Shown piece after piece: positions 4,691 through 37,687 of a DNA stretch of 64,000 nucleotides. A program made the position numbers and the translations under genes. Every line of letters begins with the position of its first letter. Positions within the stretch are counted from its first letter, which is position 1. The notes beneath the pieces were generated by a model. It worked only from the letters and a program-made list of their open reading frames with translations. It did not search any database and had not been told where the DNA came from. The DNA is from Chloroflexota bacterium (lineage in GTDB: Bacteria > Chloroflexota > Limnocylindria > Limnocylindrales > CSP1-4), in contig JAXDKT010000161.1 of the NCBI GenBank assembly GCA_034666965.1, forward strand, positions 5,603 through 69,602, given 5' to 3'.

Positions 4691-4796
4691 GTCGACGGCC
4701 GGCCTCGAGCGTCCGACGAAGGACCCTGCGCTATACTCCGCTCCACCTCAGCGCTCGTGCAGGAGACGGACCTCTCTGGCAGTCGTTCATCCCGGT

Positions 4797-22941: not shown

Positions 22942-24407
22942 GAGACGAGTGCCCTGGCGGCGTCCTCGACCACGCGCACGAGGGGGCCGGGGTAGAGCCC
23001 CAGCAGGACGGTCAGGATCGCGGTCCCGGCCAGGCCCAGTCGGAGCAGGCCGCTCTTCTCGACCGCGGGCACGTCCTTGCCCTCGCGCATGTACATGTAG
23101 ACCACGACGCGCAGGTAGTAGAACGCAGCGACCGCGGCGTTGAGCACCAAGATGACCGCCAGGATCCCGGCCGGGCCGCCAGCCTCGACGGCGGCCAGGA
23201 CCACGTAGGCCTTGGCCAGGAACCCGGCCGTCGGCGGGATGCCCGTCAGCGACAGCAGGAAGAGGGTCATCAGGAGCGCCAGGGCCGGCTCGCGCCGGCC
23301 CAGACCCGCGAACGTCTCGATCGCGCTCGACACGCCCCGCCGGCGCTGGAGCGCGGCGACCACGGCGAACGCGCCCAGGTTCATGAAGCTGTAGGCGGCG
23401 CCGTAGTAGAGCAGGCCCTCGAGCCCGGCAATGCTCGAGTGGGGGCTGGCCCAGGCGGCCAGTCCCACGAGCATGTAGCCGGTATGCGCGATCGACGAGT
23501 AGGCCAGCATGCGCTTGACGTTGTCCTGGCTGATCGCGACGAGGTTGCCGAGCGTCATGGTGACCGTGGCCAGGACCACGATGACCATCAGCCAGTCCTC
23601 GCGAAGCGGCCCCAGGGCGCCAACGAACAGGCGCAGGATGAGCGCAAACGCACCGATCTTGGGCCCGACCGACAGATAGCCGGTCACCGGGGTGGGCGAG
23701 CCCTGGTACGCGTCCGGGGTCCAGTAATGGAACGGCACGGCGGCGATCTTGAAGGCCACGCCGGTTGTCAGGAAGGCCAGGCCCATGGCCAGCCCCGCCG
23801 ACAGCGGGGCGGTTCCGGCCACGATCTTGCCCAGCTCGGTCGCCACGACGTCAACCCGGGTCGAGCCGGTCAGGCCCCATATGAAGGCGAGGCCGAACAG
23901 GAAGATGGCTGAGCTGAACGAGCCCAACAGGAAGTACTTGATGGCACCCTCGGTCGACAACGCGTCGCGCTTGGCGAAGCCGGCCAGCAGATAGCCCGGC
24001 AGGACCATCAGCTCGAGACCCAGGAACAGCACCAGGAGGTCAGCCGCGGCCGAGATGAGGAGGGCCCCGCTCATGGCGAAGATGAGCACCGCCGCGAACT
24101 CGGCCAGGGGCAGGTCGCGCGCCGCGAGATAGTCCTTGGCGAAGACGATCGTCAACGCGACGACGGCCACGAAGAGCAGATCCAGGAATGTGGTCAGGGC
24201 GTCGAGCCGATAGGACCCTCCGAATGCCTCGCCCGGGGTCGCTCCGGTGATCAGGGTCACGATCGCCACCCCGGCCAGCCCGGCGAGGCTGATCGCAAGC
24301 GTCGCCCGGCGCGACCCCGGCACGATCAGGTCGACCACGATCAGCGCACCGGCGACGAGGACCGCCGCTACGAACGGCGCGATCGTGGTCAGGTCCTGGA
24401 CGGTCAT
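22938..24407 (-). CDS. nuoN: NADH-quinone oxidoreductase subunit N
   Basis: 14-TM antiporter-like subunit. Last gene of the nuo operon. Confidence 0.9.
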   Translation of the reverse strand: MTVQDLTTIAPFVAAVLVAGALIVVDLIVPGSRRATLAISLAGLAGVAIVTLITGATPGEAFGGSYRLDALTTFLDLLFVAVVALTIVFAKDYLAARDLPLAEFAAVLIFAMSGALLISAAADLLVLFLGLELMVLPGYLLAGFAKRDALSTEGAIKYFLLGSFSSAIFLFGLAFIWGLTGSTRVDVVATELGKIVAGTAPLSAGLAMGLAFLTTGVAFKIAAVPFHYWTPDAYQGSPTPVTGYLSVGPKIGAFALILRLFVGALGPLREDWLMVIVVLATVTMTLGNLVAISQDNVKRMLAYSSIAHTGYMLVGLAAWASPHSSIAGLEGLLYYGAAYSFMNLGAFAVVAALQRRRGVSSAIETFAGLGRREPALALLMTLFLLSLTGIPPTAGFLAKAYVVLAAVEAGGPAGILAVILVLNAAVAAFYYLRVVVYMYMREGKDVPAVEKSGLLRLGLAGTAILTVLLGLYPGPLVRVVEDAARALVS

Positions 24408-24422: not shown

Positions 24423-25979
24423 TTACCGGACCAGCACGTGGAATGCGGCCACGGTGCCGCCCTGGACGCTCTCGAGGACGGTCGTCACCGACGTCTGGAC
24501 CAGGTTCAGGATGAGACCGGGGAACAGTCCGAAGACGACGATCAGGGCCCCCAGCGGGGCGAGGGTGAGCAGCTCGACCGGACGGATGTCGGTCAGGTGG
24601 CCGCCCAGCCCCGTCAGGAACTCCGACAGCTCGCCGGTGAACAGCCGCTGGAACATCCACAGCAGGTACGCGGCGGCCAGGATCATGCACGAGGTCGCGA
24701 CCGCGGCCACGTAGGGGTTGGCCGTGAAGGCGCCGACCAGGACGAGGAACTCGCCGACGAAGCCGGACAGGCCGGGCAGGCCCACGCTCGCGAACACGAA
24801 GAAGCCGAACGCCGCGGCATAGACCGGGGTCCGGCCCGCCAGGCCGCCGAGCTTGGCGATCGTCCGGTCGTGGGTTCGCTCGTAGATCACCCCGACCAGC
24901 AGGAACAGGGCCCCGGTGATCAGTCCGTGGTTGACCATCTGCAGGATCGCGCCCTGCATGCCCTGCTCCTGAAACACGAAGATCCCCAGGGTCACGAAGC
25001 CCATGTGGCTGACCGACGAATAGGCGATGAGCTTCTTGAGGTCCGGCTGGACCAGGGCCACGATCGCGCCGTAGATGATCGCGATGAGGCTGAGCACGAT
25101 GATCCACGGCGCAAAGGTCCGGGCCGCATCCGGGAACAGCGGCAGCGCGAACCGGATGAAGCCGTAGGCGCCGAGCTTGAGCATGATCGCGGCGAGGATC
25201 ACCGAGCCCGCCGTGGGAGCCTCGACGTGGGCATCCGGCAGCCAGGTGTGGAACGGGAACATCGGGACCTTGATGGCGAAGGCCAGGAAGAAGGCCAGGA
25301 AGGCGAACAGCTGGAGGCCGTTGGCGAAGCCGACGGTCCCGGCGAACGTCCGCAGCGACTCGAAGTCAAAGGCATTGGTCCACGAGCCAGTCGCGGCCTG
25401 GTAGGTGTAGGCGGTGGCCAGGATGGCGACCAGCATCAGGAGCGAGCCGACCAGCGTGTAGAGCACGAACTTGATGGTCGCGTAGATCCGGTTCGATCCG
25501 CCCCAGATCCCGATGATCAGGTACATCGGGACGAGGACGACCTCCCAGAACACGTAGAACAGGAACAGATCGAGGGCCACGAACACGCCGATCAGCCCGA
25601 CCTCGAGGATGAGGAACGAGATCATGTATTCCTTGAGGCGCTCCTTGATCGGGCCGAACGAAGCCAGGATGCTGATCCACGACAGGGTCGTGGTCAGGAC
25701 CACCAGGACCGCGCCCAGCCCGTCGACCCCGACCTTGTACTGGACTCCGAAGACGGGGATCCAGTCAACCCGCTCGACATACGAGAAGCCGCTCGCCAGG
25801 GGGTCGAACCCGATCAGCATCAGCAGCGACAGCCCGAACGACACGAAGGCCGCGCCCAGGGCGGTCCAGCGCACGGCGCGTTCGTTGCCCTTGGGGATGA
25901 ACGCGATGATCAGCGCCCCCACGAGGGGGACGAACGTGACCAGGCTGAGCAGCGGCAGGCTCGACCCCTCGACGATCAT
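24423..25979 (-). CDS. nuoM: NADH-quinone oxidoreductase subunit M
   Basis: Track ORF trimmed to ATG 25979 (MIVEGSSLPLLSL...). The ATGA overlap matches the nuoL stop. Confidence 0.9.
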   Translation of the reverse strand: MIVEGSSLPLLSLVTFVPLVGALIIAFIPKGNERAVRWTALGAAFVSFGLSLLMLIGFDPLASGFSYVERVDWIPVFGVQYKVGVDGLGAVLVVLTTTLSWISILASFGPIKERLKEYMISFLILEVGLIGVFVALDLFLFYVFWEVVLVPMYLIIGIWGGSNRIYATIKFVLYTLVGSLLMLVAILATAYTYQAATGSWTNAFDFESLRTFAGTVGFANGLQLFAFLAFFLAFAIKVPMFPFHTWLPDAHVEAPTAGSVILAAIMLKLGAYGFIRFALPLFPDAARTFAPWIIVLSLIAIIYGAIVALVQPDLKKLIAYSSVSHMGFVTLGIFVFQEQGMQGAILQMVNHGLITGALFLLVGVIYERTHDRTIAKLGGLAGRTPVYAAAFGFFVFASVGLPGLSGFVGEFLVLVGAFTANPYVAAVATSCMILAAAYLLWMFQRLFTGELSEFLTGLGGHLTDIRPVELLTLAPLGALIVVFGLFPGLILNLVQTSVTTVLESVQGGTVAAFHVLVR

Positions 25980-27955
25980 CGGCCGCTCACGATCACGAGG
26001 TACGAGCCGGCCATCACGATGAGCCCGATGGCGATCCCCAGGGCGTAGTTCTGGACCCGTCCCGTCTGGACCCGGCGCAGACCCGTGCCGAGCCCGCGGG
26101 CGAGCGCCCCCAGCCCGTTGACGGTGCCGTCCACGATCGTTCGGTCGAACCACCAGCAGGCCGTCGCGATCCGCCCGCCGACCCGGATGAAGAGCAGGTC
26201 GTTGAGCTCGTCGAACCACCACTTGTTGAGGGACGCGCGGTACAGGAAGCGGGTCGCGGCGTTCGCCTCGGCGATGGCGGTGACCTGCTCCGGACGCGGC
26301 GCCCGACGCAGGCCGAGCAGCTCGACTCCGAAGAAGTGCCAGGCGACCAGGATGCCGACGGTGGCGATGCCGACGCTGGCCAGGATCAGCGCCCCGTCGA
26401 TCCCGAACAGGCTGAACGCCGCCTCCGGATGGCCCGAGGCCGCGAGCGTCTCGGCAAAGACCGGCTCGAGCCAGGTGTGGATGAGGCTGTTCCCGAAGGG
26501 CAGACCCAGGACCAAGCCCAGGAAGATCGTGGGGATGGCCAGGATCACCAGGGGCACCGTCATCGACGGCGGCGACTCGTGGACCAGGGGCTCGATCTCG
26601 GGCGCGACATGGCTCGGGCCCCAGAAGGTCATGCCCATCAGCCGGAACATGTAGAAGGCGGTCATCCCGGCGACCACGAAACCGATCGCCCACACGACCA
26701 GGAAGCCGTTCTTGAACGCCTCGGCCAGGATCTCGTCCTTGCTGAAGAAGCCCGCCAGGGGTGGGATGCCCGCGATCGCCAGCGAGCCGATGAGCGTCGT
26801 CCAGTACGTGATCGGGATCCTTCGCCACAGGCCGCCCATCCGGCGCATGTCCTGCTCTTCGTGGACGGCGTGGATGACCGAGCCCGAATCGAGGAAGAGG
26901 AGGCCCTTGAAGAAGCCATGGGCCATCAGGTGGAAGATTGCGGCGGTCCACGCCCCGACTCCCAGCGCCGCGAACATGTAGCCGAGCTGGGACAGGGTCG
27001 AGTAGGCCAGCACGCGCTTGATGTCGGTCTGGGTGAAGGCGATCGAGGCGGCCAGGATCGCGGTGAAGATGCCGATCGCGGCGACCACGACCATCGCGCT
27101 CTGGGCGTGGCCGAAGATCGGGTTGGCCCGAGCCACCAGGTAGACCCCGGCGTTGACCATCGTCGCGGCGTGGATCAGGGCCGAGACCGGGGTGGGCCCC
27201 TCCATCGCGTCGGGCAGCCAGACGTGGAGCGGGAACTGGGCGCTCTTGCCGGCCGCCCCGCAGAACACCAGCAGGGCGATGGCCGTGATCGTGGGCTGGT
27301 CGAGCTCGCCGATCCGGGCCAGGACCTCCTGGACATTGAGCGTCCCGAGGCTGACGAAGATGAGCATGATCCCGAGGGCGAAGCCGACGTCACCCACCCG
27401 GTTGACGATGAATGCCTTCTTGCTGGCCAGCGCGGCGCTGCGTTTGCGGTACCAGAAGCCGATGAGCAGGTAGCTCGACAGACCGACCAGCTCCCAGGCC
27501 ACGAAGATCACCAGGAAGTTGTCGGCAAGGACGAGCAGGAGCATCGAGAACATGAACAGGTTGAGGTAGGCAAAGAAGCGCCACGTGCCCGGGTCGTGGC
27601 TCATGTACCCGATCGAATAGATGTGGACGAGCATCCCGATCGTGGTCACCACGATGAGCAGGCAAGCCGTCAGCGCGTCGACGTGGAAGCCGGCCTCCAC
27701 CACGAACTTGCCGGCCGGGATCCACTGCCACAGGCCGATCGAGTGGCCGTGCTCCCCGAACGGCTCGGCCCGGCCAAGGGCCGCGGCCGCGACGACCATC
27801 GCGGCCACCCAGCTGACGACCACGGCGCCGATCGGCAGCGCGCTCGCAGCATTGCGGCCGGAGCGGGCCTGCAGCCGCCGCCCGAACAGGGCGGTGAAGG
27901 CGAAACCGGCGAGGGGCAGCGTCGGAACGATCAGGATGAGGAGGTCGTAGGGCAT
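25976..27955 (-). CDS. nuoL: NADH-quinone oxidoreductase subunit L
   Basis: 659 aa. Antiporter-like core plus long C-terminal helix region. Confidence 0.9.
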   Translation of the reverse strand: MPYDLLILIVPTLPLAGFAFTALFGRRLQARSGRNAASALPIGAVVVSWVAAMVVAAAALGRAEPFGEHGHSIGLWQWIPAGKFVVEAGFHVDALTACLLIVVTTIGMLVHIYSIGYMSHDPGTWRFFAYLNLFMFSMLLLVLADNFLVIFVAWELVGLSSYLLIGFWYRKRSAALASKKAFIVNRVGDVGFALGIMLIFVSLGTLNVQEVLARIGELDQPTITAIALLVFCGAAGKSAQFPLHVWLPDAMEGPTPVSALIHAATMVNAGVYLVARANPIFGHAQSAMVVVAAIGIFTAILAASIAFTQTDIKRVLAYSTLSQLGYMFAALGVGAWTAAIFHLMAHGFFKGLLFLDSGSVIHAVHEEQDMRRMGGLWRRIPITYWTTLIGSLAIAGIPPLAGFFSKDEILAEAFKNGFLVVWAIGFVVAGMTAFYMFRLMGMTFWGPSHVAPEIEPLVHESPPSMTVPLVILAIPTIFLGLVLGLPFGNSLIHTWLEPVFAETLAASGHPEAAFSLFGIDGALILASVGIATVGILVAWHFFGVELLGLRRAPRPEQVTAIAEANAATRFLYRASLNKWWFDELNDLLFIRVGGRIATACWWFDRTIVDGTVNGLGALARGLGTGLRRVQTGRVQNYALGIAIGLIVMAGSYLVIVSGR

Positions 27956-27958
27956 CGG

Positions 27959-28270
27959 CTACTGCCGCATCGCGTCGTACTCGTCGACCAGCGGCGTCCG
28001 CCGGTTGCGGAAGATGGCGATCACGATGGCCAGCCCGACGGTCGCCTCGCCGGCCGCCACGGCGATCACGATCAGGGCAATGATCGATCCCTGCTCGCGC
28101 AGGAGCGGGTTGAACGCCCCGAAGGCGACGATCGCCAGGTTGACGGCGTTGAGCATCAGCTCGATTGACATGAGCATGCTGATCGCGTTGCGGCGGGCCA
28201 GGAAGCCGAACGTGCCGATGCAGAACAGCAGCGCCGACAGGATCAGGTAGGCGTCCAGCGAGTTGATCAT
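27959..28270 (-). CDS. nuoK: NADH-quinone oxidoreductase subunit K
   Basis: 103-aa three-TM protein MINSLDAYLILSALLF... with a conserved Glu in the TM. ATG 28270 overlaps the nuoJ stop. Confidence 0.9.
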   Translation of the reverse strand: MINSLDAYLILSALLFCIGTFGFLARRNAISMLMSIELMLNAVNLAIVAFGAFNPLLREQGSIIALIVIAVAAGEATVGLAIVIAIFRNRRTPLVDEYDAMRQ

Positions 28271-28818
28271 CCGCGGTCGGTCGCTTCCCCCTGGTCGAGC
28301 TCGCGCTTGGCCAGGTAGATGCCACCGATCACGGCGGCCAGGAGCAGGACGCTGACGACCTCGAACGGCAGCACGAAATCCCGGAACAGGATCCGGGCCA
28401 GCTCCGCGGTCCCCACCTGGAGCCGTTCCGCCGCCGCCCCCCAGTCGGTGGCACCGATGACCAGGACCAGGATCAGCGCCAGGATCACGGCCAGGATCGC
28501 CGCCGGGACGGCCTGGGTCTGGAACACCAGCCGGACCGGGGCGGCCTTGGTCTGGGTGAGCATGATCGCGAACAGGACCAGGACGCTGATGGCGCCGATG
28601 TAGATGAGCACCTGAGCGCCGGCGATGAGCGGCGCGCCGAGGATCACGTAGATCCCGGCCAGCGCCCCGAAGCACACGATCATCGCCAGGCCGCAGCGGA
28701 TGATGTCGCGCATCACCACGACCAGCAGGCCCGAGCCCAGGAGCAGCGCGGCGAAGGCCAGGAACAGGAGGTCGTTCCAGCTCAGCCCGATGAACGGGAT
28801 CGTGTCCGGGATCGCCAC
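28267..28818 (-). CDS. nuoJ: NADH-quinone oxidoreductase subunit J
   Basis: 183-aa five-TM protein. Position and composition typical of NuoJ. Confidence 0.85.
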   Translation of the reverse strand: MAIPDTIPFIGLSWNDLLFLAFAALLLGSGLLVVVMRDIIRCGLAMIVCFGALAGIYVILGAPLIAGAQVLIYIGAISVLVLFAIMLTQTKAAPVRLVFQTQAVPAAILAVILALILVLVIGATDWGAAAERLQVGTAELARILFRDFVLPFEVVSVLLLAAVIGGIYLAKRELDQGEATDRG

Positions 28819-28836: not shown

Positions 28837-31446
28837 CTACTCGTGGTGGGCGTGGCGGCCGCCCGCGCCACCGTGCCCATTCCCGCCATGGGCGCCGCCG
28901 TGCCCGTTGGGGCCGTTGGGACCGGCGGCGATCGACGGTGGCAGGACCGGCAGCAGCCGGCTCGGGTCGGGCAGGCGACCGGCGACCCGGGCTCGCTCCA
29001 TCCAGTCCGCCTCGCGCCGGATGTAGGTCGCCTCGGTCTCCATGTCGACCGCGGCCAGGGCGATGAGGTCGATCATCGGCTCTTCCCGGCTGGTATGCGA
29101 CAGCTCGAACTGATCGCTGTGGCGCAGGGCGTCATAGGGGCAGGCGTCGACGCAGATGCCGCACAGGATGCAGCGGCTCTCGTCGACCTCGTACTTCTCC
29201 AGGACCCGCGGCTTGGGCATCAGCGCCCCGGTCGGACAGGTCTCCGCGCAGCGCCCGCACGACACGCACGGCGTGTCGTTGAGGCTCATGTCGAGGGGTG
29301 TCGTCACCAGCGTGTCGAAGCCGATTCTCATGAAGTCGTAGCAGGCCGCGCCGACGACCTCGGAGCAGACCTGGGCGCAGCGGCCGCAGTCGATGCAGCG
29401 CGACGGCTCGCGCAGGATGAACGCGTGGCTGTCGTCCCGGATGTAGTCGTGGTTGACCCCGGTGAACCGGTTCTCGGTGACGCTCCGGTAGCCGGCGCCC
29501 TGGTGATACGCGGGCTCGAGCGTCTTGAGGGTGGTCCCGTACTCGATCCCGAGCCGGCGCAGGTCGCAGAAGCCGATCGCCTCGCAGGTGCACTGGAGAC
29601 AGCGGGTCGACTCGGCCACGGCCTCGGCCGGCGTGTAGGGGATCTCGTACTCGACGTAGCTCTTGTTCCGGATCTCGGCGTCCATCGCCTTCATCCGGTA
29701 GCGAGGCTCCTTGACCTCGCTGGTGAAGGGCACGATCGACAGGAACTCGGGCTGCGGCTCGGCCAGGGTCTGGCGGGTCTTGATCGTCGACAGGTCGAGA
29801 CCCTTGAGATAGGCGTCGGCGGCGTATGACGCCCGGCGGCCCTCCGCGATGGCCTGCACGACCGTCGCCGCGCCGATCCGGACGTCGCCCGTCCCGAACA
29901 CGCCCGCTCGGTCGGTCTCGAAGGTGACCGCGTCGGCCTTCAGCCGGCGCTGCTTGGTGGGCTGGGGCCCCTCGGAGCCGGGCCCGATCCAGGACAGGTC
30001 GGGGCCCTGGCCGATGGCCAGCAGGACCCGATCGCAGTCGATCGTGAACTCGGTCCCGGGCATCGGCTCCGGCCGACGCCTTCCGGAGGCGTCCGCTTCG
30101 CCCAGCTTGTTGCGGATGAACTCGACCCCGGTCACCTTGCCGGCCTCATCGACGATGACCCGGGTGGGAGCGGCCTGGAAGATGGCCTGGACGCCTTCTT
30201 CGATGGCCTCGTGGACCTCGTTCGCGGCCGGCATGTCCTTCATGTCCCGGCGGTAGACCAAGGTCACCTCGCCGGCCCCCTGGCGGATCGACGTCCGCGA
30301 GCAGTCCATCGAGGTGAAGCCACCGCCGATGACCACGACCCGCTTGCCGGCGTGACCCGGGTAGGGCAGGCCGAGGGTCGCGGTCTGGAGGTACTCCAGC
30401 CCGTCGATCACGCCATCGGCATCCTCGTTGGGAACCCCCAGCTTGTTGGTGTCGTAGCAGCCGATCGCGACCAGGACCGCATCGAAGCCTTGGCCCTGCA
30501 GGTCGTCGAGGGTGAAGTCGCGCCCGAGACCCTGACCGCACACGATCTTGCCGCCGAGCCGCGTCACCGACTCGTACTCGGCCTCGAGGACCTCGACCTT
30601 GGGCAGACGATACTGGGGGATCCCGTAGCGGAGCATCCCGCCGGGCGCCGCGTCGCGCTCGAAGACGGTCACCTCGTGGCCGGCCAGGAGGAGGTAGTAG
30701 GCGGCGCTCATGCCGGCCGGACCGGAGCCGATGACGGCGGCCCGTCGGCCACTCCTGGCCTGGGGCTCGAAGGGCAGCGGCGGATCCAGTCCGTCATCGA
30801 GCATCGCCTTGAGGACCTGGTCGCCGGCGTAGCGGTGGCTGTCCCGGATGGCGATCGCCTCGTCGACCTCGTCGCGCCGGCAGTGCTCCTCGCAGGGCGC
30901 CGGGCAGACCCGGCCGAGCACGCTCGGGAAGGGGATCGTCCGCTTGAAGATCCGGGTCGACTCGCGCCAGTCGCCCTCGGCGTTCTGCTTGAGGAAGCCC
31001 GGGATGTCGATGTGGCTGGGGCACTTGTTCTGGCACGGCGGCAGGCAGTAGGCGTTGTGGTCGCTGAAGATCAGCTCGAGGTTGGTCGCCCGCAACCGGC
31101 GCAGCTCCTCGGTCTGGGTCTGGACCTTCATGTCCGGCTCGCACGCTCGCGAGCAGCTGATCGGCGGACACTCCTCCCCCTCGACCTCGACCACGCACAT
31201 CCGGCACGCGCCAAAGCCGGGCAGCTTGGGTTCGTAGCACAGGGTCGGGATCTCGATCCCGTTGTCGCGACAGACCTCCAGGATGGTCTGCCCCGCGTGA
31301 CCATCGACGACCCGGCCGTCGACCTCGATTCGGAAGCCGGGACTGGCCTGCGGCCGCTGCGGCGCCGGGGTCGTCAGGAGCCGTTCGGCAAGCGAATCCG
31401 GCTGGTCCTGGGGCTGGGCGTCGGGTCTGATGATCAGGTCGGTCAT
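28837..31446 (-). CDS. 869-aa fusion: NuoG/HydA-type N-terminal Fe-S domain ([2Fe-2S] plus His-Cys3 [4Fe-4S]), GltD/NfnB-type FAD/NAD(P)H oxidoreductase, and NuoI-type 2x[4Fe-4S] ferredoxin C-domain. It occupies the nuoG/nuoI slot.
   Basis: ATG 31446 (MTDLIIRPD), 11 nt after the nuoF stop. [2Fe-2S]: PTLCYEPKLPGFGACRMCVVEV...ISCSRAC. H-x3-C-x2-C-x5-C: HNAYCLPPCQNKCPSH. GltD-like: RAAVIGSGPAGMSAAYYL, GKRVVVIGGGFTSMDCSRTSIRQGA, VFGTGDV. Ferredoxin: CIDCGRCAQVC, CVSCGRCAETCP, CILCGICVDACPYDAL...FELSH (NuoI C-terminal-like). Gly/His-rich tail. Confidence 0.8.
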   Translation of the reverse strand: MTDLIIRPDAQPQDQPDSLAERLLTTPAPQRPQASPGFRIEVDGRVVDGHAGQTILEVCRDNGIEIPTLCYEPKLPGFGACRMCVVEVEGEECPPISCSRACEPDMKVQTQTEELRRLRATNLELIFSDHNAYCLPPCQNKCPSHIDIPGFLKQNAEGDWRESTRIFKRTIPFPSVLGRVCPAPCEEHCRRDEVDEAIAIRDSHRYAGDQVLKAMLDDGLDPPLPFEPQARSGRRAAVIGSGPAGMSAAYYLLLAGHEVTVFERDAAPGGMLRYGIPQYRLPKVEVLEAEYESVTRLGGKIVCGQGLGRDFTLDDLQGQGFDAVLVAIGCYDTNKLGVPNEDADGVIDGLEYLQTATLGLPYPGHAGKRVVVIGGGFTSMDCSRTSIRQGAGEVTLVYRRDMKDMPAANEVHEAIEEGVQAIFQAAPTRVIVDEAGKVTGVEFIRNKLGEADASGRRRPEPMPGTEFTIDCDRVLLAIGQGPDLSWIGPGSEGPQPTKQRRLKADAVTFETDRAGVFGTGDVRIGAATVVQAIAEGRRASYAADAYLKGLDLSTIKTRQTLAEPQPEFLSIVPFTSEVKEPRYRMKAMDAEIRNKSYVEYEIPYTPAEAVAESTRCLQCTCEAIGFCDLRRLGIEYGTTLKTLEPAYHQGAGYRSVTENRFTGVNHDYIRDDSHAFILREPSRCIDCGRCAQVCSEVVGAACYDFMRIGFDTLVTTPLDMSLNDTPCVSCGRCAETCPTGALMPKPRVLEKYEVDESRCILCGICVDACPYDALRHSDQFELSHTSREEPMIDLIALAAVDMETEATYIRREADWMERARVAGRLPDPSRLLPVLPPSIAAGPNGPNGHGGAHGGNGHGGAGGRHAHHE

Positions 31447-31457
31447 CGGGCGCCTCG

Positions 31458-32795
31458 TCAGGCCCGTCCGGCGAGGGCCACCGCGATCGGGTGACACACG
31501 CCCGCGGGGCAGGTGCTGCGGAGGAGGTGATCGTCCAGCTCGGGCCGGAAGTATCGCATCGCGCTGGTTGTCGGAAGCGTCGCGAGCCGCTCGTGGTCGC
31601 ACAGGGCCGAGCCCACGATGTCGCTGGCCAGGTCGAGCGCCAGAGCGGCATCGCCCGGCCGGGGGGTCCCCGCGGCCATCCGATCGACGATCTCCGACAG
31701 GCGCCGCGTGCCGATCCGGCAGGGGATCGTCTTGCCGCAGGCCTGGTCGGCGCAGAACCGGGTCAACAGTCGGGCCAGATCGACGATGCAGGCTTGGTCG
31801 TCGGCGACCACGATGGAGCCCGAACCAATGTGGGCGTCGACGGCCCGAAGGGCGTCGTATTCGTAGGGCGTGTCGAGGAGGTCGGGTGGCAGGAAGCCCC
31901 CCGAAGGGCCGCCAACGAGAACGGCCTTGATCGGACGCTCGGGCTCGCTTCCGCGCCCACGAGCGTGGACGAGATCGACCAGGTCCCGCAGCTTCGTTCC
32001 GATTGGCACCTCGGCGATGCCCGCGCCGCCCGGTCCCCGGAGCTGGACCAGGATCGTCCCGGGGCTCGCCTTCGAGCCGATCGCGGCATACGCCTCAGCC
32101 CCGTGGTTCACGATCCAGGGGACCGCGGCCAGGGTCTGCACGTTGTGGACCAGCGTGGGGCGCCCGAAAAGTCCCTGCTCGGCTGGGTGCGGTGGACGTT
32201 GCTCGGGCTGCCCGCGCTTGCCCTCCAGCGCCTTGAGCAGGACGGTCTCCTCGCCCAACATGTAGGCGCCCTGAACGGGTCGGATCTCGATCCGCACCGG
32301 CCAGCCCGTCTCGACCGCGTCGGGGCCGATCAGGCCGGTCTCCTCGGCCGCGGAGATTGCTGCCTCGAGCGTCCGGATTGCCGCTTCGGCATCGGATCGA
32401 ACTGCGATGAAGCCTTGGCGGGCGTCGATCGCATAGGCCGCCAGGGCCATCCCCTCGATCACCGCGAACGGGGCCCGCTCGAGGAGCGTGCGGTCGGTCT
32501 GGACGGCGGGATCCGCGCCATAGCCGTTGGCCACGACGTAGCGACGGGCCTCGGGAGCGCTGGCTGCGGCACGCCACTTGGTCCCGCTCGGGAAGCCCGC
32601 CCCGCCGCGACCGCGCAGGCCCGAGCCGGCCACGGCGGTCACGACCTGGCTCGGGGTCATCGCTCGGACTGCGGTCTTGAGCGCCTCGAAGGCCCCGGTC
32701 CGGATCGCGCTGTCGAGATCGGTGGGATCGCCGCCGTCAGTCGCGGGCAGGAGCACCCGCGGCCAGCTCGAAGGAGTCGCGAGCAGGTTTGTCAC
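31458..32795 (-). CDS. nuoF: NADH-quinone oxidoreductase subunit F (FMN, N3 cluster), divergent
   Basis: GLRGRGGAGFPSGTKW (FMN/phosphate loop), YVVANGYGADP (NADH site, diverged), CGKTIPCRIG ... ALCDHE (N3 Cys ligands). Confidence 0.85.
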   Translation of the reverse strand: MTNLLATPSSWPRVLLPATDGGDPTDLDSAIRTGAFEALKTAVRAMTPSQVVTAVAGSGLRGRGGAGFPSGTKWRAAASAPEARRYVVANGYGADPAVQTDRTLLERAPFAVIEGMALAAYAIDARQGFIAVRSDAEAAIRTLEAAISAAEETGLIGPDAVETGWPVRIEIRPVQGAYMLGEETVLLKALEGKRGQPEQRPPHPAEQGLFGRPTLVHNVQTLAAVPWIVNHGAEAYAAIGSKASPGTILVQLRGPGGAGIAEVPIGTKLRDLVDLVHARGRGSEPERPIKAVLVGGPSGGFLPPDLLDTPYEYDALRAVDAHIGSGSIVVADDQACIVDLARLLTRFCADQACGKTIPCRIGTRRLSEIVDRMAAGTPRPGDAALALDLASDIVGSALCDHERLATLPTTSAMRYFRPELDDHLLRSTCPAGVCHPIAVALAGRA

Positions 32796-33463
32796 CGTTC
32801 GCCCGCCGGTGCGTCGTCGGCCGCGTCCGGTCGGGCGCCTCGCCCGCTGAGAGCGCCGTCGAGCGCGCCCAGGTAGGCCTCGTCCGCGCGCCCCGGCGCC
32901 GCCGCGGGAGCGCCGACCGCCAGGTGGTCGTAGTAGGTGGCCGTGCCGTAGAGCATGGCGTACCAGGCACCGGTCGACTGGCTCACCCGCTTGAGCGCCG
33001 CGACGGGAACGTAGCCGTACTCGGCCTGGATCGCGGCGAGGATCCCGAGGAGCTCCTTGGGATCGTGGTCGAAGCCCTCGAGGATTTCGTCGACGGCGTG
33101 CAGATCGATCCCGTGGAAGTGCTCATAAACCGGGTCGGGAACGGTCCGTCCGGCGCGCCGGAGGGCCGACTCCTCGCGCCGTTCGCCATAGGTCTCGGGC
33201 GGGCCCCAGTGGATCGCATAGCGGCCCTTGGTGTCGACGCCACCCATGTCGATGCACTCGACCGGGCAGGCCTGGGCGCATTGGAAGCAGGTCTCGCATT
33301 TGAGCGTCCCGTACTCGTCGTAGAGCAGCTGCAGACGCCCCCGGAACTTGGGCGGGATGCTGGCCGGGACCTCGGGATAGAGGTTGGTGACCTTGGGCTC
33401 GAAGAAGCGGCGCAGGGTCAGGGCCATGCCCCGAACCAGACCGAGTCCGGGCACGAAGCTCAT
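32792..33463 (-). CDS. chimeric 223-aa protein: NuoI N-terminal half (one CxxCxxCxxxCP motif) fused to a cysteine-less NuoE-like thioredoxin-fold N-domain
   Basis: LRRFFEPKVTNLYPEVPASIPPKFRGRLQL ... CETCFQCAQACPVECIDM is the NuoI N-terminus plus its first Fe-S motif. The second motif is absent. The C-terminal half, HAVDEILEGFDHDPKELLGILAAIQAEYGYVPVAALKRVSQSTGAWYAMLYGTATYYDHL, resembles the NuoE N-domain but carries no Cys for N1a. Confidence 0.7.
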   Translation of the reverse strand: MSFVPGLGLVRGMALTLRRFFEPKVTNLYPEVPASIPPKFRGRLQLLYDEYGTLKCETCFQCAQACPVECIDMGGVDTKGRYAIHWGPPETYGERREESALRRAGRTVPDPVYEHFHGIDLHAVDEILEGFDHDPKELLGILAAIQAEYGYVPVAALKRVSQSTGAWYAMLYGTATYYDHLAVGAPAAAPGRADEAYLGALDGALSGRGARPDAADDAPAGER

Positions 33464-33473
33464 CGGGTGGTCC

Positions 33474-34820
33474 TCATCGGATGCCGTCCACGACCAGGAT
33501 GGCCAGGGCGGTCACGAACAGGTTGAGCAGCGAAGCGGGCAACAGCCACTTCCAGGCGAAGCCCATGAGCTGATCGATCCGGACCCGCGGCAACGTTCCG
33601 CGCATCCACACGAAGAGGAATACGAAGCCATACGTCTTGGTCAGGAACCAGAGCAGGCCCACGACCCAGTCGAAGCTGAGGAATGCGAACCCGACGAGCG
33701 CCGCCACGGCCACCAGGTTGAACAGGACGAAGCCGATGACCAGCGCCTGCCACAGCTTGACCTGGCTGTTGACGAGGTAGAAGGGCAGGCCCAGGACCAA
33801 GATTCCCAGCGGCGGGATGAGCGCCAGGGCGAACAGCAGGCCGATGCCCATGCCGCTCAGATCGGGCTGGGCCACGATCGGCCAGGGCCAGTCGAAGGGC
33901 GCGTTCCAGCCGCCCATGAAGAGGGCCACCGTCAGGCCCGAGACGATGAACACGTTGACGTACTCGGCGAAGAAGAAGAACCCGAAGCGCATACCCGAGT
34001 ACTCGGTGGCGAACCCGGCCACGATCTCGGAGTCCGCCTCGGTCAGGTCGAACGGGGTCCGGTTCGCCTCAGCGGTCGCGGCGATGAAGAAGATCACGAA
34101 GGCCAGTGGCTGCCGGAAGACGTACCAGTCGAACAGGCTGCCGGACTGGTTGAGGGTGATCTGGTTGACGCTCAGGGTTCCCGACAGCAGGACGATCCCG
34201 ACCACCGACAGGGTCAGCGGGATCTCGTAGCTCACGATCTGGGCCGCCGCCCGAAGCCCGCCCAGCAGCGAGTACTTGTTGAAGCTGGACCAGCCGGCCA
34301 TCAGCAACCCGACCACGCCCAGCCCGCCCATGGCGAAGAAGTAGAGCAGCCCGATGTTGAGGTCCAGGCCGAACAGGCCGGGAGCGAACGGGACCACGAC
34401 CAGGGTCATGACGCTGGCGACATAGACCACGATCGGGGCCCAGGTGAACACCAGCGGGTCGGCCCCGGTCGGGGTGAAGTCCTCTTTCATCAGGACCTTG
34501 AGCCCGTGGACCACCGACAGCAGCGAGCCATACGGCCCGACCCGGTCGGGACCGTAGCGCAGGTTCATCAGGGCGATGACCTTCATCTCCATGTAGATGA
34601 TCAGGAAGGCCGTCGGGACGGTCATCAGCAGGATGATGGTTGCGGCCACGACGAAGCGGACGAGCGGCACGTTGTCGCCCAGGAAGGTCAGGACCACCGG
34701 TCCGACGATGACCACGGCTGCGGTCAGGCCGGCGGCCAGGACGAGCAGCAGGGGCACGGCCGTGAACACGATCTTGCCCGGCAGGGTCAGGCGGCCGAAC
34801 GTCCGACTGAGCATCGCCAT
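33474..34820 (-). CDS. nuoH: NADH-quinone oxidoreductase subunit H
   Basis: 448-aa polytopic protein with the conserved NuoH loop AGWSSFNKYSLLGGLRAAAQIVSYEI and the quinone-site EYxxxxF-like segment TEYSGMRFGFFFFAEY. Confidence 0.9.
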   Translation of the reverse strand: MAMLSRTFGRLTLPGKIVFTAVPLLLVLAAGLTAAVVIVGPVVLTFLGDNVPLVRFVVAATIILLMTVPTAFLIIYMEMKVIALMNLRYGPDRVGPYGSLLSVVHGLKVLMKEDFTPTGADPLVFTWAPIVVYVASVMTLVVVPFAPGLFGLDLNIGLLYFFAMGGLGVVGLLMAGWSSFNKYSLLGGLRAAAQIVSYEIPLTLSVVGIVLLSGTLSVNQITLNQSGSLFDWYVFRQPLAFVIFFIAATAEANRTPFDLTEADSEIVAGFATEYSGMRFGFFFFAEYVNVFIVSGLTVALFMGGWNAPFDWPWPIVAQPDLSGMGIGLLFALALIPPLGILVLGLPFYLVNSQVKLWQALVIGFVLFNLVAVAALVGFAFLSFDWVVGLLWFLTKTYGFVFLFVWMRGTLPRVRIDQLMGFAWKWLLPASLLNLFVTALAILVVDGIR

Positions 34821-35996
34821 CTACTTGTCGACGCCCCCCATGATCGGATCGAGCGAGGCCATGATCGCCATCGTGTCGGCGATGAGATTGCCCGGGGTCA
34901 GCAGCCCGACCGCCTGGAGGTGGACGAAGCTGGGGTCATGGATCCGCATCCTGAAGGGCTGGTCGGTTCCGTCACTGATGGCGTACGTGGCGTACTGCCC
35001 GCGAGGACCCTCGACCGCGGCGTAGGCCCGGCCGGGCCGGGGCCGCATCAGCCGGGGCAGCTTGGCCATGATCGGCCCGTCGGGCATCTCGTTGAGGCAC
35101 TGGTCGATGATCCGCAGGCTCTGCTTGATCTCATCGAGACGAACCAGGTAGCGCGCGAGGCAATCGCCTTCCTGGCGGGTCGGGACATCGAAGTCGAGCT
35201 CGGGATAGATGCTGTAGGGGTGCGACCGGCGCATGTCCAGGGGAACCCCGGAGGCCCGGATGTTGGGTCCGGTCATGCACATCCGGAAGGCGGTTTCGCG
35301 ATCGAGCGTGCCCAGGCCGCGCATGCGCCGGACGAAGATCTCGTTCTGATTGAGTAGGGTCTGGTTGGCCTCGATCTGCTCGGTGGCCTTGCTCATCCAG
35401 GTCCCCAGCCGGCTCATGAACTCGTGATTGAGATCGCCGTTGACGCCGCCGATCCGGAAGTAATTGAAGAGCATCCGTTGACCGGTGAGCGCGGCCAGCA
35501 GCTCGACGATGTCGTCGCGCTCGATGAAGCTCCACAGGATCGGCGTCAGCCCGCCGAGGTCGAGCGCCATCCAGCCCATGAACAGGGCGTGACTGGCGAC
35601 CCGGTTGAGCTCACCCGACAGGACCCGGATGTATTCGGCGCGGCGCGGGACCTCGACGTCCATGAGCTTCTCGAAGGCCATCACCGGGGCCCATTCGTTG
35701 AACAGCGCGCTGACGTACTCGAGCGGATCGGTGTAGGCGATGGTGTGGTGGTAGTCGGCGTTCTCGCACAGCTTCTCCACGCCGCGATGGAGGTAGCCCA
35801 GGACCGGGTCAAGGTCGACCACGCGCTCGCCCTCGAGCTTGAGCACGACCCGCAGGACGCCGTGGGTGGAGGGATGCTGCGGCCCCATGTTGACGAACAG
35901 CTCGCCGTCGCCGAGGGTGTAGAACTCGGCCTCGCGCTCGGTCCGAGGCGGATATGGCGGGATCGGCTCGAAGACGCCGATCTGCTCCTCGAGCAT
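34821..35996 (-). CDS. nuoD: NADH-quinone oxidoreductase subunit D (49 kDa)
   Basis: ATG 35996 (MLEEQIG...); GTG 36038 is an alternative. MGPQHPSTHGVLRVVLKLEGE, YLHRGVEKL, C-terminal IMASLDPIMGGVDK. Confidence 0.9.
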   Translation of the reverse strand: MLEEQIGVFEPIPPYPPRTEREAEFYTLGDGELFVNMGPQHPSTHGVLRVVLKLEGERVVDLDPVLGYLHRGVEKLCENADYHHTIAYTDPLEYVSALFNEWAPVMAFEKLMDVEVPRRAEYIRVLSGELNRVASHALFMGWMALDLGGLTPILWSFIERDDIVELLAALTGQRMLFNYFRIGGVNGDLNHEFMSRLGTWMSKATEQIEANQTLLNQNEIFVRRMRGLGTLDRETAFRMCMTGPNIRASGVPLDMRRSHPYSIYPELDFDVPTRQEGDCLARYLVRLDEIKQSLRIIDQCLNEMPDGPIMAKLPRLMRPRPGRAYAAVEGPRGQYATYAISDGTDQPFRMRIHDPSFVHLQAVGLLTPGNLIADTMAIMASLDPIMGGVDK

Positions 35997-36048
35997 GACC
36001 CGCGGATCGTCCGTGGACGGGACCCGGATGGTCGTCACCGCCGCTGCC

Positions 36049-36600
36049 TCAGCTCGACCTGGTCCGCCGGACACGATCGTCCGGGGTCGCGTCGACCGGC
36101 TCGTGGGTGCGTTCCATGTGGCGGACGCCGCCGCCCGGGGAGCGGGCCGCATCGTCGGGCAGGTAGAAGTCCTTGCGCAACGGGAAGCTGGTGTAGTCGG
36201 CCGGCATATAGATCCGGCGCAGGTCGCGGTTGCCTTCGAACGCGATTCCGAACATGTCGTAGGCCTCGCGCTCCTGCCACTCGGCGCCCTTCCACAGGAA
36301 GGTGACCGAGGGGACCCGCGGATCGTCGCGGGACAGGCCGTCCGCGACCACTCGCAGCCAGTCCGGGCTGGTCGGGCTCCACAGGTGATAGACCGCCTGC
36401 ATCGTGGTCCCGGTGTCGACGCCGCACAGGTCCATCAGGGCCTCGAACCCGAAGTCGGGCTCGTCATGAAGCGCCCGCATGACCTCGGGCAGGTCGCCCG
36501 GCGCGACCCGGATCTCGGTCTCGTCGTGGCGCTGGCGAACGGGCCCCAGCAGCCACTGTCCGAAGCGGGCTTCGAGGCGGCGCCGGAGGGATCGGTCCAC
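36049..36600 (-). CDS. nuoC: NADH-quinone oxidoreductase subunit C (30 kDa)
   Basis: Trimmed to GTG 36600, 5 nt after the nuoB stop. The upstream part of the track ORF is Arg/Gly junk. DLCGVDTG ... EREAYDMFGIAFEGNRDLRRIY ... FPLRKDF. Confidence 0.75.
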   Translation of the reverse strand: MDRSLRRRLEARFGQWLLGPVRQRHDETEIRVAPGDLPEVMRALHDEPDFGFEALMDLCGVDTGTTMQAVYHLWSPTSPDWLRVVADGLSRDDPRVPSVTFLWKGAEWQEREAYDMFGIAFEGNRDLRRIYMPADYTSFPLRKDFYLPDDAARSPGGGVRHMERTHEPVDATPDDRVRRTRSS

Positions 36601-36605
36601 CGGGC

Positions 36606-37340
36606 TCAGACTCCGTCCGGGACGGTCGGCCCGATGGCGCGCTCCGGCCAGTGGCCGCGGCGCTCGAGCACGAGCTGCTGGAGCTTCATCATCCCGTAGA
36701 TGAGGCCCTCCGGCCGGGGCGGACAGCCCGGCACGTAGACGTCCACGGGCATCACCCGGTCGATCCCCTGGATCGTCGAGTAGCTCCGCTTGTAGCGTCC
36801 GCCCGAGCAGGTGCAGTCCCCCATCGCGACGCACCACTTGGGTTCGGGCATCTGTTCCCACAGGCGGACGAGCGGGCCGGCCATCTTGGTCGTCAGCGTG
36901 CCGGCCACGATCAGGACGTCGGCCTGGCGCGGGCTGGCCCGGAACGGGAACATGCCCCAGCGATCCATGTCGTTCTTGGACGTCGCCGCCGACATCATCT
37001 CGATGGCACAGCAGGCCAGGCCCGACAGGAGCGGCCAGAGGCTGTTCGCCCGGATCAGGTCGAGCACGACGTCGGCCTTGGTCGGGATGACCTCGAGGGC
37101 ACCCCAGCGAGCGTCGTCGTGACGGCCGGCGTCGCTGGCTGCGTACTCGCGCAGATGAGCGGCGTCGGACGTGCCCGCGGCGCTGTACGCGGCCGGCTCG
37201 GCCGATTGCCAGAGCGTGTTCGGGACCACGATCGGGGCCATCGGGTCGCGATCGCCGGCGACCGTGAGCGAGCGCTCGTCGGTCGGCTCGGCGGCTTCCA
37301 CGCCGGCCGGCCCGGTCGCGCCCTCGGGCGTCAGCGCCAT
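36606..37340 (-). CDS. nuoB: NADH-quinone oxidoreductase subunit B (N2 cluster) with an approx. 70-80-aa acidic/Ala-rich N-terminal extension
   Basis: SLWPLLSGLACCAIEMM, CTCSGG, GCPPRPE (N2 ligands). Core preceded by MALTPEGATGPAGVEAAEPTDERS...; internal ATG (MAPIVV) at 37241 is an alternative start. Confidence 0.85.
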   Translation of the reverse strand: MALTPEGATGPAGVEAAEPTDERSLTVAGDRDPMAPIVVPNTLWQSAEPAAYSAAGTSDAAHLREYAASDAGRHDDARWGALEVIPTKADVVLDLIRANSLWPLLSGLACCAIEMMSAATSKNDMDRWGMFPFRASPRQADVLIVAGTLTTKMAGPLVRLWEQMPEPKWCVAMGDCTCSGGRYKRSYSTIQGIDRVMPVDVYVPGCPPRPEGLIYGMMKLQQLVLERRGHWPERAIGPTVPDGV

Positions 37341-37687
37341 GTCAGGACACCCTTGCGCCAGGCGTAGGCCAACCCCAGCAGGAGGATCCCGACGAACACG
37401 AGCATGCTCACCAGGCCGCCCAGGAGCAGGTCCCGGAAGACGATCGCCCAGAGGTAGATGAAGATCACCTCGATGTCGAACGCCACGAACAGCAGGGCGT
37501 AGATGTAGAACGACAGGCCGAATCGACCGTGGGTATCGCCGTACGTGTCAATGCCCGACTCGTAGGGCAGGCCCTTGTGGCCGTCGCCACGGTTTCGATG
37601 GGAGATGAGCCAGGCCGCGCCGATGGTCACGATGACGAACGAGACGCCGGCGAAGGCGAACCCGACGACGTACCAGATCCCGGTCAA
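37331..37687 (-). CDS. nuoA: NADH-quinone oxidoreductase subunit A
   Basis: 118-aa three-TM protein; first gene of the nuo operon. Confidence 0.85.
   Translation of the reverse strand: MTGIWYVVGFAFAGVSFVIVTIGAAWLISHRNRGDGHKGLPYESGIDTYGDTHGRFGLSFYIYALLFVAFDIEVIFIYLWAIVFRDLLLGGLVSMLVFVGILLLGLAYAWRKGVLTWR

Follow-up and report, generated by a model that had tools for sequence, protein, structure and literature searches.

Complex I is specific for NADH in textbook descriptions, and the locus described here raises the question of whether a variant of it also takes up electrons from NADPH, and by means of which protein. The locus lies within a 64,000-nucleotide (nt) stretch of the genome of a Chloroflexota bacterium (Limnocylindria; Limnocylindrales; CSP1-4; GenBank assembly GCA_034666965.1, contig JAXDKT010000161.1, positions 5,603 to 69,602), which is called the window below. 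Inside a complex I (nuo) operon, positions 28837..31446 of the window encode a protein of 869 amino acids (aa). An earlier reading of the letters alone, the sequence-only reading, had described it as a fusion of a NuoG/HydA-type iron–sulphur (Fe–S) domain, a GltD/NfnB-type flavoprotein and a NuoI ferredoxin, and had proposed that it serves as a Bfu/Nfn-like NAD(P)H input module of complex I. Our analyses indicate that the gene belongs to an nfnCBA-like cassette of three genes that reads as inserted inside a split nuoI. We consider it reasonably probable that the operon encodes a complex I that pumps protons and accepts hydride at two sites, one of flavin mononucleotide (FMN) and NADH and one of flavin adenine dinucleotide (FAD) and NADPH, which meet at an Fe–S junction from which a third arm leads via a reassembled NuoI to quinone.

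The 869-aa open reading frame (ORF) runs on the minus strand, as do all operon genes and features given below, from an ATG at 31446 to a stop codon at 28837-28839. A GAGG sequence is located 7 nt 5' of the ATG, and the gene of the NuoF-like protein, called F' below, ends 11 nt before it. The domains were called with Pfam and NCBIfam profile searches, which bore out the ORF and the domain order of the sequence-only reading, and every motif quoted there was found again (CYEPKLPGFGACRMC...C, HNAYCLPPCQNKC, CPAPCEEHC, both GxGxxG, CIDCGRC, two CxxCGxCxxxCP and CPYDAL...FELSH). The [2Fe-2S] domain, equivalent to A1/N1b, occupies residues 39–112 (31111..31332; Fer2_4, E 5e-18), and its cysteines C70, C81, C84 and C98 are identical in both lineages that carry the fused protein and in the soluble NfnA-like proteins. 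It is followed by a GltD/NfnL-type Fe–S domain with the equivalents of A6 and A7 (residues 134–212; 30811..31047; Pfam Fer4_20, E 4e-17). The motifs of this domain, H130-x3-C134-x3-C138-x3-C142-P and G-R179-V-C181-x3-C185-x3-C189, both align with NfnA and StnC, and R179 stands at the position of K170 of StnC, which is a cluster ligand there. The FAD/NAD(P)H flavoprotein core, with two Rossmann folds, R280 and Y399-R-R401, covers residues 236–536 (29839..30741; Pyr_redox_2, E 1.6e-26). The GltD-type assignment held at the thresholds of the hidden Markov models (HMMs), with 62.5 bits for Fer4_20 (cutoff 25.8) and 93.9 bits for Pyr_redox_2 (cutoff 26.1), and TIGR01318/TIGR01316 match the flavoprotein core at about 1e-90. 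The whole-protein GltD equivalog models score under their own cutoffs, as is expected with a fusion protein, and PRK12814 ('NADPH-dependent glutamate synthase small subunit'-like) matches residues 40–697 with an E-value of 5e-160.

Behind the flavoprotein core lies the all-Cys motif C616-x2-C-x-C-x5-C627 (residues 616–627; 29566..29601), which aligns with CLECGCx5C of NfnA and StnC and corresponds in position to the His-ligated N5/FS4C site of NuoG/HydA. We infer its identity with A3 from the domain order and from the A6-A3-A2-A1 path described in PMC11829005. The sequence-only reading had placed the NuoG/HydA His-Cys3 site at HNAYCLPPCQNKC; this candidate was rejected, as the motif is part of the Fer4_20 domain, thus of a different type of domain, and in the alignment with NfnA and StnC it falls on their NfnL-type domain. 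A 2x[4Fe-4S] ferredoxin-like domain (A2 and A4) comes next (residues 677–742; 29221..29418; Pfam Fer4_Nqo3 and Fer4_7, aligned with NfnA and StnC), with invariant cysteines in its motifs C684..C694 and C727..C737-P. The protein then continues into the C-terminal half of NuoI (residues 745–835; 28942..29214), which contains C759..C769-P followed by FELSH. A Pfam Fer4 match covers residues 752–775, and positions 71–117 of 121 of the NuoI model TIGR01971 match residues 747–793; together with the concatenated alignment given below, this match agrees with the earlier identification of the last Cys motif as the C-terminus of NuoI. The predicted cofactors of the whole protein are one [2Fe-2S] cluster, five [4Fe-4S] clusters, FAD and an NADPH site. 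The AlphaFold2 model, built from a 25-sequence alignment, reached a mean predicted local distance difference test (pLDDT) score of 54 and was confident in the flavoprotein core only, with values <50 for residues 558–815.

Two other segments of the protein are recorded here as side observations. An 18-residue insertion, TTLKTLEPAYHQGAGYRS (residues 638–655; 29482-29535), follows the CLQCTCx5C cluster; it is highly conserved across Limnocylindria and occurs neither in Thermoleophilia nor in the soluble NfnA/StnC relatives. The C-terminal tail, GPNGPNGHGGAHGGNGHGGAGGRHAHHE (residues 841–869; 28840-28926), is rich in Gly, His and Asn. Its sequence varies among the orthologues, a comparable low-complexity tail is mostly kept, and metal binding by it is conceivable.

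The comparison with solved structures showed where the protein comes from. Residues 39–769 form one colinear alignment with the NADPH-binding A subunits of the Bfu-type Nfn and Stn transhydrogenases, namely 9bov_A (1178 aa; 5e-157), whose size fits the 130-kDa NfnA of Caldicellulosiruptor saccharolyticus, StnC of Sporomusa ovata (8oh5_C; 2e-137) and an archaeal NfnA (9n5u_A; 6e-136). The domain order that the sequence-only reading had found unusual is therefore real, but it is not that of a loose mosaic. Of the features of an Nfn-Bfu/Stn A subunit, A1, the inserted NfnL/GltD domain (FAD, NADPH, two [4Fe-4S] and a Lys/Arg beside CPxPC) and A2–A4 were found. R280, the counterpart of R239 of StnC, as well as the Rossmann motifs and YRR, are conserved with NADPH-oxidising NfnA and StnC; YRR presumably binds the 2'-phosphate in GltD/NfnB-type enzymes. 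The two other genes of the cassette lead to the same source, since all three proteins have their best solved match in one entry, 9bov (chain A, 5e-157; chain B, 5.5e-111; chain C, 3e-6), in line with the Bfu/Nfn type assigned to the three neighbouring genes before; their order is C-like, B-like, A-like. The homology with NfnA ends at about residue 769, where the formate dehydrogenase (Fdh)-like domain of NfnA, with its CTFCGMGC motif, begins. The NuoI C-half (CILCGICVDACP) occupies the start of the Fdh-like domain, 21 residues past the A4 motif, and the 869-aa protein ends 100 residues past that motif, with no Fdh-like domain and no A5 cluster. In the Nfn-Bfu/Stn A subunit, the A5-bearing Fdh-like domain mediates tetramer formation.

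The other half of NuoI is encoded at the opposite end of the cassette, in a chimeric protein of 223 aa. The N-terminal half of NuoI, identified with the NCBIfam NuoI models and a concatenation test, makes up residues 1–106 (33146..33463), contains C56..C66-P and is the best-conserved section of this protein; the NuoI models match residues 9–80 (positions 13–85 of 180 and 1–66 of 121). When residues 1–92 of the 223-aa protein were joined to residues ~745–835 of the 869-aa protein, they gave one colinear alignment with full-length NuoI (6e-20 for E. coli and 8e-20 for M. smegmatis). The break in nuoI is positioned in the loop separating its two CxxCxxCxxxCP motifs, so that motif 1 (residues 56–67 of the 223-aa protein) and motif 2 (residues 759–770 of the 869-aa protein) are never on one polypeptide, and a tblastn search of the window for further NuoI-like sequence found none besides the two halves. 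In the 2x[4Fe-4S] ferredoxin fold each cluster requires both motifs, and therefore the two polypeptides would have to reassemble into one NuoI fold, which would anchor the module on NuoB, NuoC, NuoD, NuoH and the membrane arm. The split nuoI with its inserted cassette was absent from the sequence-only reading.

Residues 117–182 of the 223-aa protein (32918..33115) form an NfnC/NuoE N-terminal helical domain, which matches only positions 2–58 of 145 of Pfam 2Fe-2S_thioredx and has its best structural matches in the N-terminal domain of 9bov_C (20–83 of 176, E 3e-6) and in StnA (8oh5_A). The last cysteine of the protein is C70 and the [2Fe-2S] thioredoxin-like domain of NuoE is absent; having no Cys after residue 70, the protein therefore carries no [2Fe-2S] cluster. 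In the solved enzyme the N-domain of NfnC sits in a cleft that the Fdh-like domain forms with NfnB (PMC11829005). With the NuoI C-half at the Fdh-like/A5 position and the NfnC N-domain joined to the N-half of NuoI, both fusions, independently of each other, bring the reassembled NuoI to the Fdh-like site.

The third cassette gene, 31458..32795, encodes F' (445 aa; Pfam Complex1_51K and NADH_4Fe-4S), a BfuB core that lacks the BfuB domains at both its N- and its C-terminus. Among solved structures F' matches BfuB best (9bov_B residues 104–526 of 584, E 5.5e-111) and Thermus Nqo1 more weakly (5e-75), and its relatives among the BfuB subunits also include HydB and StnB. The FMN/NADH loops (GLRGRGGAGFP, K73, GEET and loop 3) are kept, and the components of the BfuB core, i.e., FMN, NADH site and B1 [4Fe-4S], are present in F' with a Thr at the middle Cys of the B1 motif. 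In 79 sequences the cluster cysteines C353, C359 and C399 are 100% conserved and C348 is 91% conserved. The C-terminus H-x5-CPAGVC-H (residues 423–435; 31491-31529), with H423, C429 and C434, is 76% conserved. The B2 zinc site of NfnB consists of three Cys and one His, and H423, C429 and C434 are a vestige of this site from which the ferredoxin domain normally tethered there is gone.

The minimal bifurcating site of the Bfu enzymes is the flavobicluster B1-FMN-C1, from which B3/B4 lead to ferredoxin (PMC11829005; PMC9304861). For C1 [2Fe-2S] the search was negative: the NuoE-like region stops at profile position 58/145, and the NuoE C-terminal domain is missing from the window and from ±10 kb of the 80 related loci described below. 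In the same regions, tblastn with Thermoleophilia queries for the B5 (N-terminal thioredoxin-like) and B3/B4 domains of BfuB gave only generic ferredoxin motifs. Judged by its sequence, the module of the window does not have what defines a bifurcating Bfu enzyme, though it is clearly descended from one.

The same locus organisation was found well beyond the window. A collection with one genome per species was scanned, which yielded 405 stretches encoding a relative, and the best 80 were examined; synteny was judged per locus as far as the contig reaches, and nuoM was not among the genes compared. The order nuoA-B-C-D-H-[I'E']-F'-[869 aa]-J-K-L...N, in which I'E' denotes the 223-aa gene, is kept in 80/80 loci, which upholds the location inside a complex I operon. 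Nearly all of these 80 loci are labelled Chloroflexota or Candidatus Limnocylindrales, and the few with other labels are presumably mis-binned. The identity to the window over the 80 genomes is 81–92% for the 869-aa protein, 59–78% for F' and 65–85% for the 223-aa protein, and the first of these ranges indicates strong purifying selection. All predicted cluster-ligand cysteines of the 869-aa protein are 100% conserved (n = 79, the window and 78 orthologues). Hundreds of metagenome protein clusters are 82–94% identical to it. A joining of two genes by sequencing error was rejected, as the same uninterrupted ORF occurs in 80 independent assemblies and in those hundreds of metagenome clusters. 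In public annotation the orthologues are named 'FAD-dependent oxidoreductase', 'formate dehydrogenase major subunit', 'glutamate synthase beta subunit-like/formate hydrogenlyase subunit' or '(2Fe-2S)-binding protein', and none bears the name of a complex I subunit, so that these genomes would be scored as being without NuoE, NuoG and NuoI.

The next relatives were retrieved by an exhaustive search of 50%-identity representatives. They are soluble NfnA/StnC-like proteins with 36–46% identity, of which the complete ones have ~1000–1370 aa, with one exception, P0141 (816 aa, 43% identity), which has the same NuoI C-half at its end. P0141 and its relatives (>100 clusters) are labelled Thermoleophilia or Actinobacteria (Actinomycetota). 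The Thermoleophilia loci L081–L085 share the nuoI insertion point, the operon order and the NfnA'-NuoI(C) fusion with the window. Their chimera of 253 aa consists of the NuoI N-half and a complete NuoE with [2Fe-2S] motifs, and their F protein is a complete BfuB of 636–641 aa, with the N-terminal thioredoxin-like domain, the canonical B1 motif ESCGKCVPC, CCx4C and the C-terminal 2x[4Fe-4S]; this form could still be bifurcating. In a neighbour-joining tree based on 682 columns and 35 sequences, 18 of them soluble NfnA/StnC-like proteins, the fused proteins of Limnocylindria and Thermoleophilia group together against the soluble ones in 100/100 bootstraps. As the fused proteins are monophyletic, the insertion into nuoI most likely occurred once. 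Since the full core is present in the outgroup enzymes, the simplest reading of the window's form is that of a reduced derivative. The core Nuo subunits of the two lineages are 40–52% identical (52–61% for NuoL), which points to an old transfer or divergence. The search of representatives also showed this [2Fe-2S]-GltD-Fe-S front end in P0182 (1140 aa), where it is followed by an [FeFe]-hydrogenase H-cluster domain; this protein appears to be an NADPH-linked variant of a HydA-type hydrogenase.

The remaining genes of the operon code for the core of complex I. The operon is compact, with genes overlapping or almost abutting in the order nuoA, B, C, D, H, 223-aa gene, F', 869-aa gene, nuoJ, K, L, M, N. 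Pfam/NCBIfam searches identified nuoA (37331-37687), nuoB (36606-37340), nuoC (within 36049-36861), nuoD (within 34821-36152), nuoH (33474-34820), nuoJ (28267-28818) and nuoK (27959-28270). The genes nuoL (25976-27955) and nuoN (22938-24407) were recognised by tblastn to the Proton_antipo_M (NuoL/M/N-type) genes of the Thermoleophilia loci, and nuoM (24423-25979) by its translation and position only. One cluster thus encodes the 11 core subunits NuoA, B, C, D, H, I, J, K, L, M and N, with NuoI present as two halves only. According to their sequences, NuoB keeps the N2 ligands (GLACCAIEMM...WCVAMGDC...GCPPRPE) and NuoD the quinone-site His/Tyr (GPQHPSTHG and LGYLHRG), and therefore the Q-module looks functional. 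A canonical N-module is not encoded in the operon: the NuoE-like part has no cluster domain, no molybdopterin-like domain is present, F' is BfuB-like and the NuoG model matches the 869-aa protein only at residues 40–138. No second nuo operon and no separate nuoE, nuoG or nuoI was found within the window, and a promoter/terminator scan across the operon gave nothing over chance.

As further observations on the core genes, NuoH has 448 aa, against 371–375 aa in the Thermoleophilia operons. The difference lies at residues ~310–385 (33666-33893), where ~75 hydrophobic residues, resembling extra transmembrane helices, are bypassed by the HMM and tblastn matches, and the longer NuoH is seemingly kept across the 80 Limnocylindria loci. 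The longest nuoB (36606-37340) and nuoD (34821-36152) ORFs carry N-terminal extensions of ~80 residues before their conserved domains, and the nuoC and nuoD ORFs overlap; in this high-GC sequence the true start codons are uncertain. Outside the operon, an ORF of 1862 aa at 4620-10208 of the plus strand has its PMT and PMT_4TMC (protein O-mannosyltransferase) domains confined to the C-terminal third; the ORF is perhaps over-extended, perhaps a large fusion.

In the solved NfnABC, electrons follow the path FAD-A7-A6-A3-A2-A1-B1-FMN, and A2-A4-A5 is a dead-end side branch described as an evolutionary remnant (PMC11829005). The FAD of StnC is non-bifurcating and passes electrons singly into the chain, and Stn is also active as an NADPH:NAD+ enzyme (PMC10482914). 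According to the reading that we prefer, a complex I with two hydride entry sites, NADH would donate a hydride to FMN, from which electrons would move to B1 and A1, and NADPH, as a physiological donor, would do so to FAD, from which they would move to A7, A6 and A3. The NADH and NADPH arms would join at A2, and the A2-A4 arm would carry the electrons to the reassembled N6a/N6b, to N2 and to menaquinone, driving proton pumping. The enzyme of the window's lineage would act simply as an NAD(P)H:quinone oxidoreductase with two points of entry, in principle reversible and non-bifurcating. With neither C1 nor the ferredoxin arm present, NADH and NADPH are each expected to reduce quinone independently, and no confurcation is expected. 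The sequence-only reading had offered NADPH use and NADH/NADPH confurcation side by side: the former is plausible, as the FAD/NADPH folds, R280 and YRR are conserved, but the latter is not supported for the window, where C1 and the N- and C-terminal domains of BfuB are absent.

Several points weigh against this scheme. The electron exit in canonical complex I runs through N5, the counterpart of A3; the exit via A4 is read from adjacency in the sequence, and electrons could leave via A3 instead. A single Fe–S chain that joins the NADH and NADPH pools would tend to short-circuit them. The nucleotide specificity is read from motif conservation only, and in P0141 and P0273 (L081 10001-12451, L084 10001-12487) the second dinucleotide motif is degenerate (GDGFAA) and YRR is gone, with the Fe–S ligands all kept; this sub-lineage may have lost the NADPH site, which is thus dispensable in some relatives. 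In F', the B1/N3 motif reads CGKTIPC instead of CGxCxxC, with Thr356 in place of the middle Cys (residues 348–359; 31719-31754), for which Cys348 may substitute as a ligand, and the adenine-stacking Phe-294 is replaced by His. Finally, all carriers are metagenome-assembled genomes, and the names of the clusters show no cultured carrier.

A wider claim, which we put forward tentatively and with the balance somewhat against it, concerns both lineages. It holds that two very abundant uncultured soil lineages have this enzyme as their main proton-pumping complex I, that it would oxidise NADPH directly as well as NADH, with electrons leaving by the A2-A4 branch that resembles a useless relic in soluble NfnABC/StnABC, that the Thermoleophilia form would wire bifurcation or confurcation of NADH, NADPH and ferredoxin to a quinone-linked pump, and that the form of the window would be a streamlined aerobic descendant. 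If true, the Thermoleophilia form would be a four-substrate respiratory machine.

The alternative that survives best, although we consider it unlikely, is that the FAD site physiologically reduces NADP+, with NADPH made from NADH through the shared chain, as by a membrane transhydrogenase, or from quinol by reverse flow driven by the proton-motive force. In vivo, the reversible enzymes NfnABC and StnABC make NADPH (PMC11829005; PMC10482914), and both flavins are wired together in the homologous structures. However, electron transfer from NADH to NADP+ is uphill at cellular ratios without a coupling site, and the window's lineage has lost the ferredoxin arm by which Nfn pays for this step. Complex I is reversible, which we count in favour of this alternative; nothing in the window, on the other hand, indicates a lithotrophic, quinol-generating metabolism. 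It also overlaps with the two-entry oxidoreductase preferred here, as the same enzyme could run both ways.

It is very improbable that the module of the window still bifurcates or confurcates, i.e., that NADH and NADPH, or NADPH and another carrier, are oxidised in obligate coupling for quinone reduction. Its descent from a bifurcating enzyme of the NfnABC/StnABC type, the retention of B1, FMN and the vestige of the B2 zinc site, and the whole bifurcating core retained in the Thermoleophilia form would fit such coupling, but neither the proteins nor the window nor ±10 kb of the 80 loci contain C1, B3, B4 or B5. Moreover, the NfnA/StnC-type FAD has been reported as non-bifurcating (PMC10482914), and NAD(P)H oxidation by quinone is exergonic, so that coupling is unneeded.

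We see just as little chance that the GltD-like domain is a structural relic, a scaffold or Fe–S wire in an enzyme whose sole donor is NADH at FMN. Complex I retains other relics, e.g., the molybdopterin-like domain of NuoG, and the degenerate second Rossmann motif and absent YRR of P0141 and P0273 illustrate that the site can decay. In the lineage of the window, however, both GxGxxG motifs, R280, YRR and the ligands of A6 and A7 do not vary, and no other stretch of the operon is as conserved as the flavoprotein region, which argues for selection on catalysis. It is scarcely credible that a soluble oxidoreductase like Nfn and a complex I of 11 subunits are encoded here as enzymes in their own right, or that the fusions are artefacts of assembly or annotation, even if soluble Nfn/Stn genes are likewise clustered and the public names go no further than 'FAD-dependent oxidoreductase' or 'formate dehydrogenase major subunit', since the NuoI halves are located on different cassette proteins of an operon with no intact nuoI and the same ORF structure recurs in 80 independent Limnocylindria assemblies and in Thermoleophilia.

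Entry of NADPH at the FAD site of this complex I, if true, would change the view of how reducing power enters respiration in Limnocylindria and Thermoleophilia, and metabolic reconstructions of these soil lineages are probably wrong on the composition of complex I. The locus also provides a concrete evolutionary link between Bfu enzymes and complex I and suggests a use for the 'dead-end' A2-A4-A5 branch of the NfnABC/StnABC structures. An operon inserted in frame into a ferredoxin-fold gene, with the fold rebuilt from two polypeptides, is a rare and instructive case. The sequence-only reading was not aware of such an arrangement as an established variant of complex I, and in the searchable literature, subscription-only papers excepted, we found no publication that describes a split NuoI or a complex I with a GltD/Nfn-type module; the surveys of complex I diversity in PMC4453560 and bioRxiv 10.1101/2025.03.13.643058 do not mention such a form.

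Among known systems, NfnABC/StnABC, the NADH-dependent ferredoxin:NADP+ oxidoreductases of the Bfu type (9bov/9bp5, 8oh5/8oh9 and 9n5u; PMC11829005, PMC10482914 and PMC12018979), have the three-subunit gene order in common with the cassette. The A subunit is colinear over ~730 residues with ~40–45% identity ([2Fe-2S], inserted GltD/NfnL with two [4Fe-4S], CxxCxCx5C and 2x[4Fe-4S]), the B subunit is shared with its FMN, NADH site and B1, and so is the N-domain of the C subunit. Unlike these enzymes, the window has the NuoI C-half in place of the Fdh-like domain and A5, lacks C1, B3/B4 and the N-terminal domain of B, and has the C-like N-domain joined to the NuoI N-half. Its module is part of a complex I operon and presumably membrane-bound and quinone-linked, whereas NfnABC/StnABC is a soluble tetramer.

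With the canonical 14-subunit complex I (Thermus thermophilus Nqo1-15, E. coli and M. smegmatis), the window shares NuoA, B, C, D, H, J, K, L, M and N, N2 and the quinone-site residues, as well as an FMN/NADH subunit, an N1b-type [2Fe-2S] and the 2x[4Fe-4S] fold of NuoI. It differs in that NuoI is carried on two polypeptides, NuoE is reduced to its N-domain with no N1a, and NuoG is replaced by the NfnA-like protein, which has an extra FAD/NADPH domain and no molybdopterin-like domain; moreover, F' is nearer to BfuB (5.5e-111) than to a true NuoF (5e-75).

The predicted 'Nuo-Bfu' complexes of Geobacter, Kuenenia, Nitrospina and others are described as consisting of 14 separate subunits with the full bifurcating BfuBC core and a NuoG-like BfuA (Schut et al. 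2022, PMC9304861; Lücker et al. 2013, PMC3578206); they belong to other phyla, and neither a GltD/NfnL NADPH domain nor a split NuoI has been reported for them in these papers. In the Mbx-like operons of Thermotoga and some proteobacteria, a gltD-related flavoprotein stands in for NuoI (Degli Esposti 2015, PMC4758237), so that, as in the window, a GltD-type NAD(P)-binding flavoprotein takes the place of NuoI on a membrane module related to complex I. These systems, however, are of the Mrp/Mbx type and do not use quinone, have no NuoF/NuoE partner and no NfnA architecture, and their NuoI is replaced, not split. The operon described here is a complex I variant with an alternative electron-input module, distinguished from these known counterparts by an Nfn-type NADPH domain joined to complex I and by a split NuoI.

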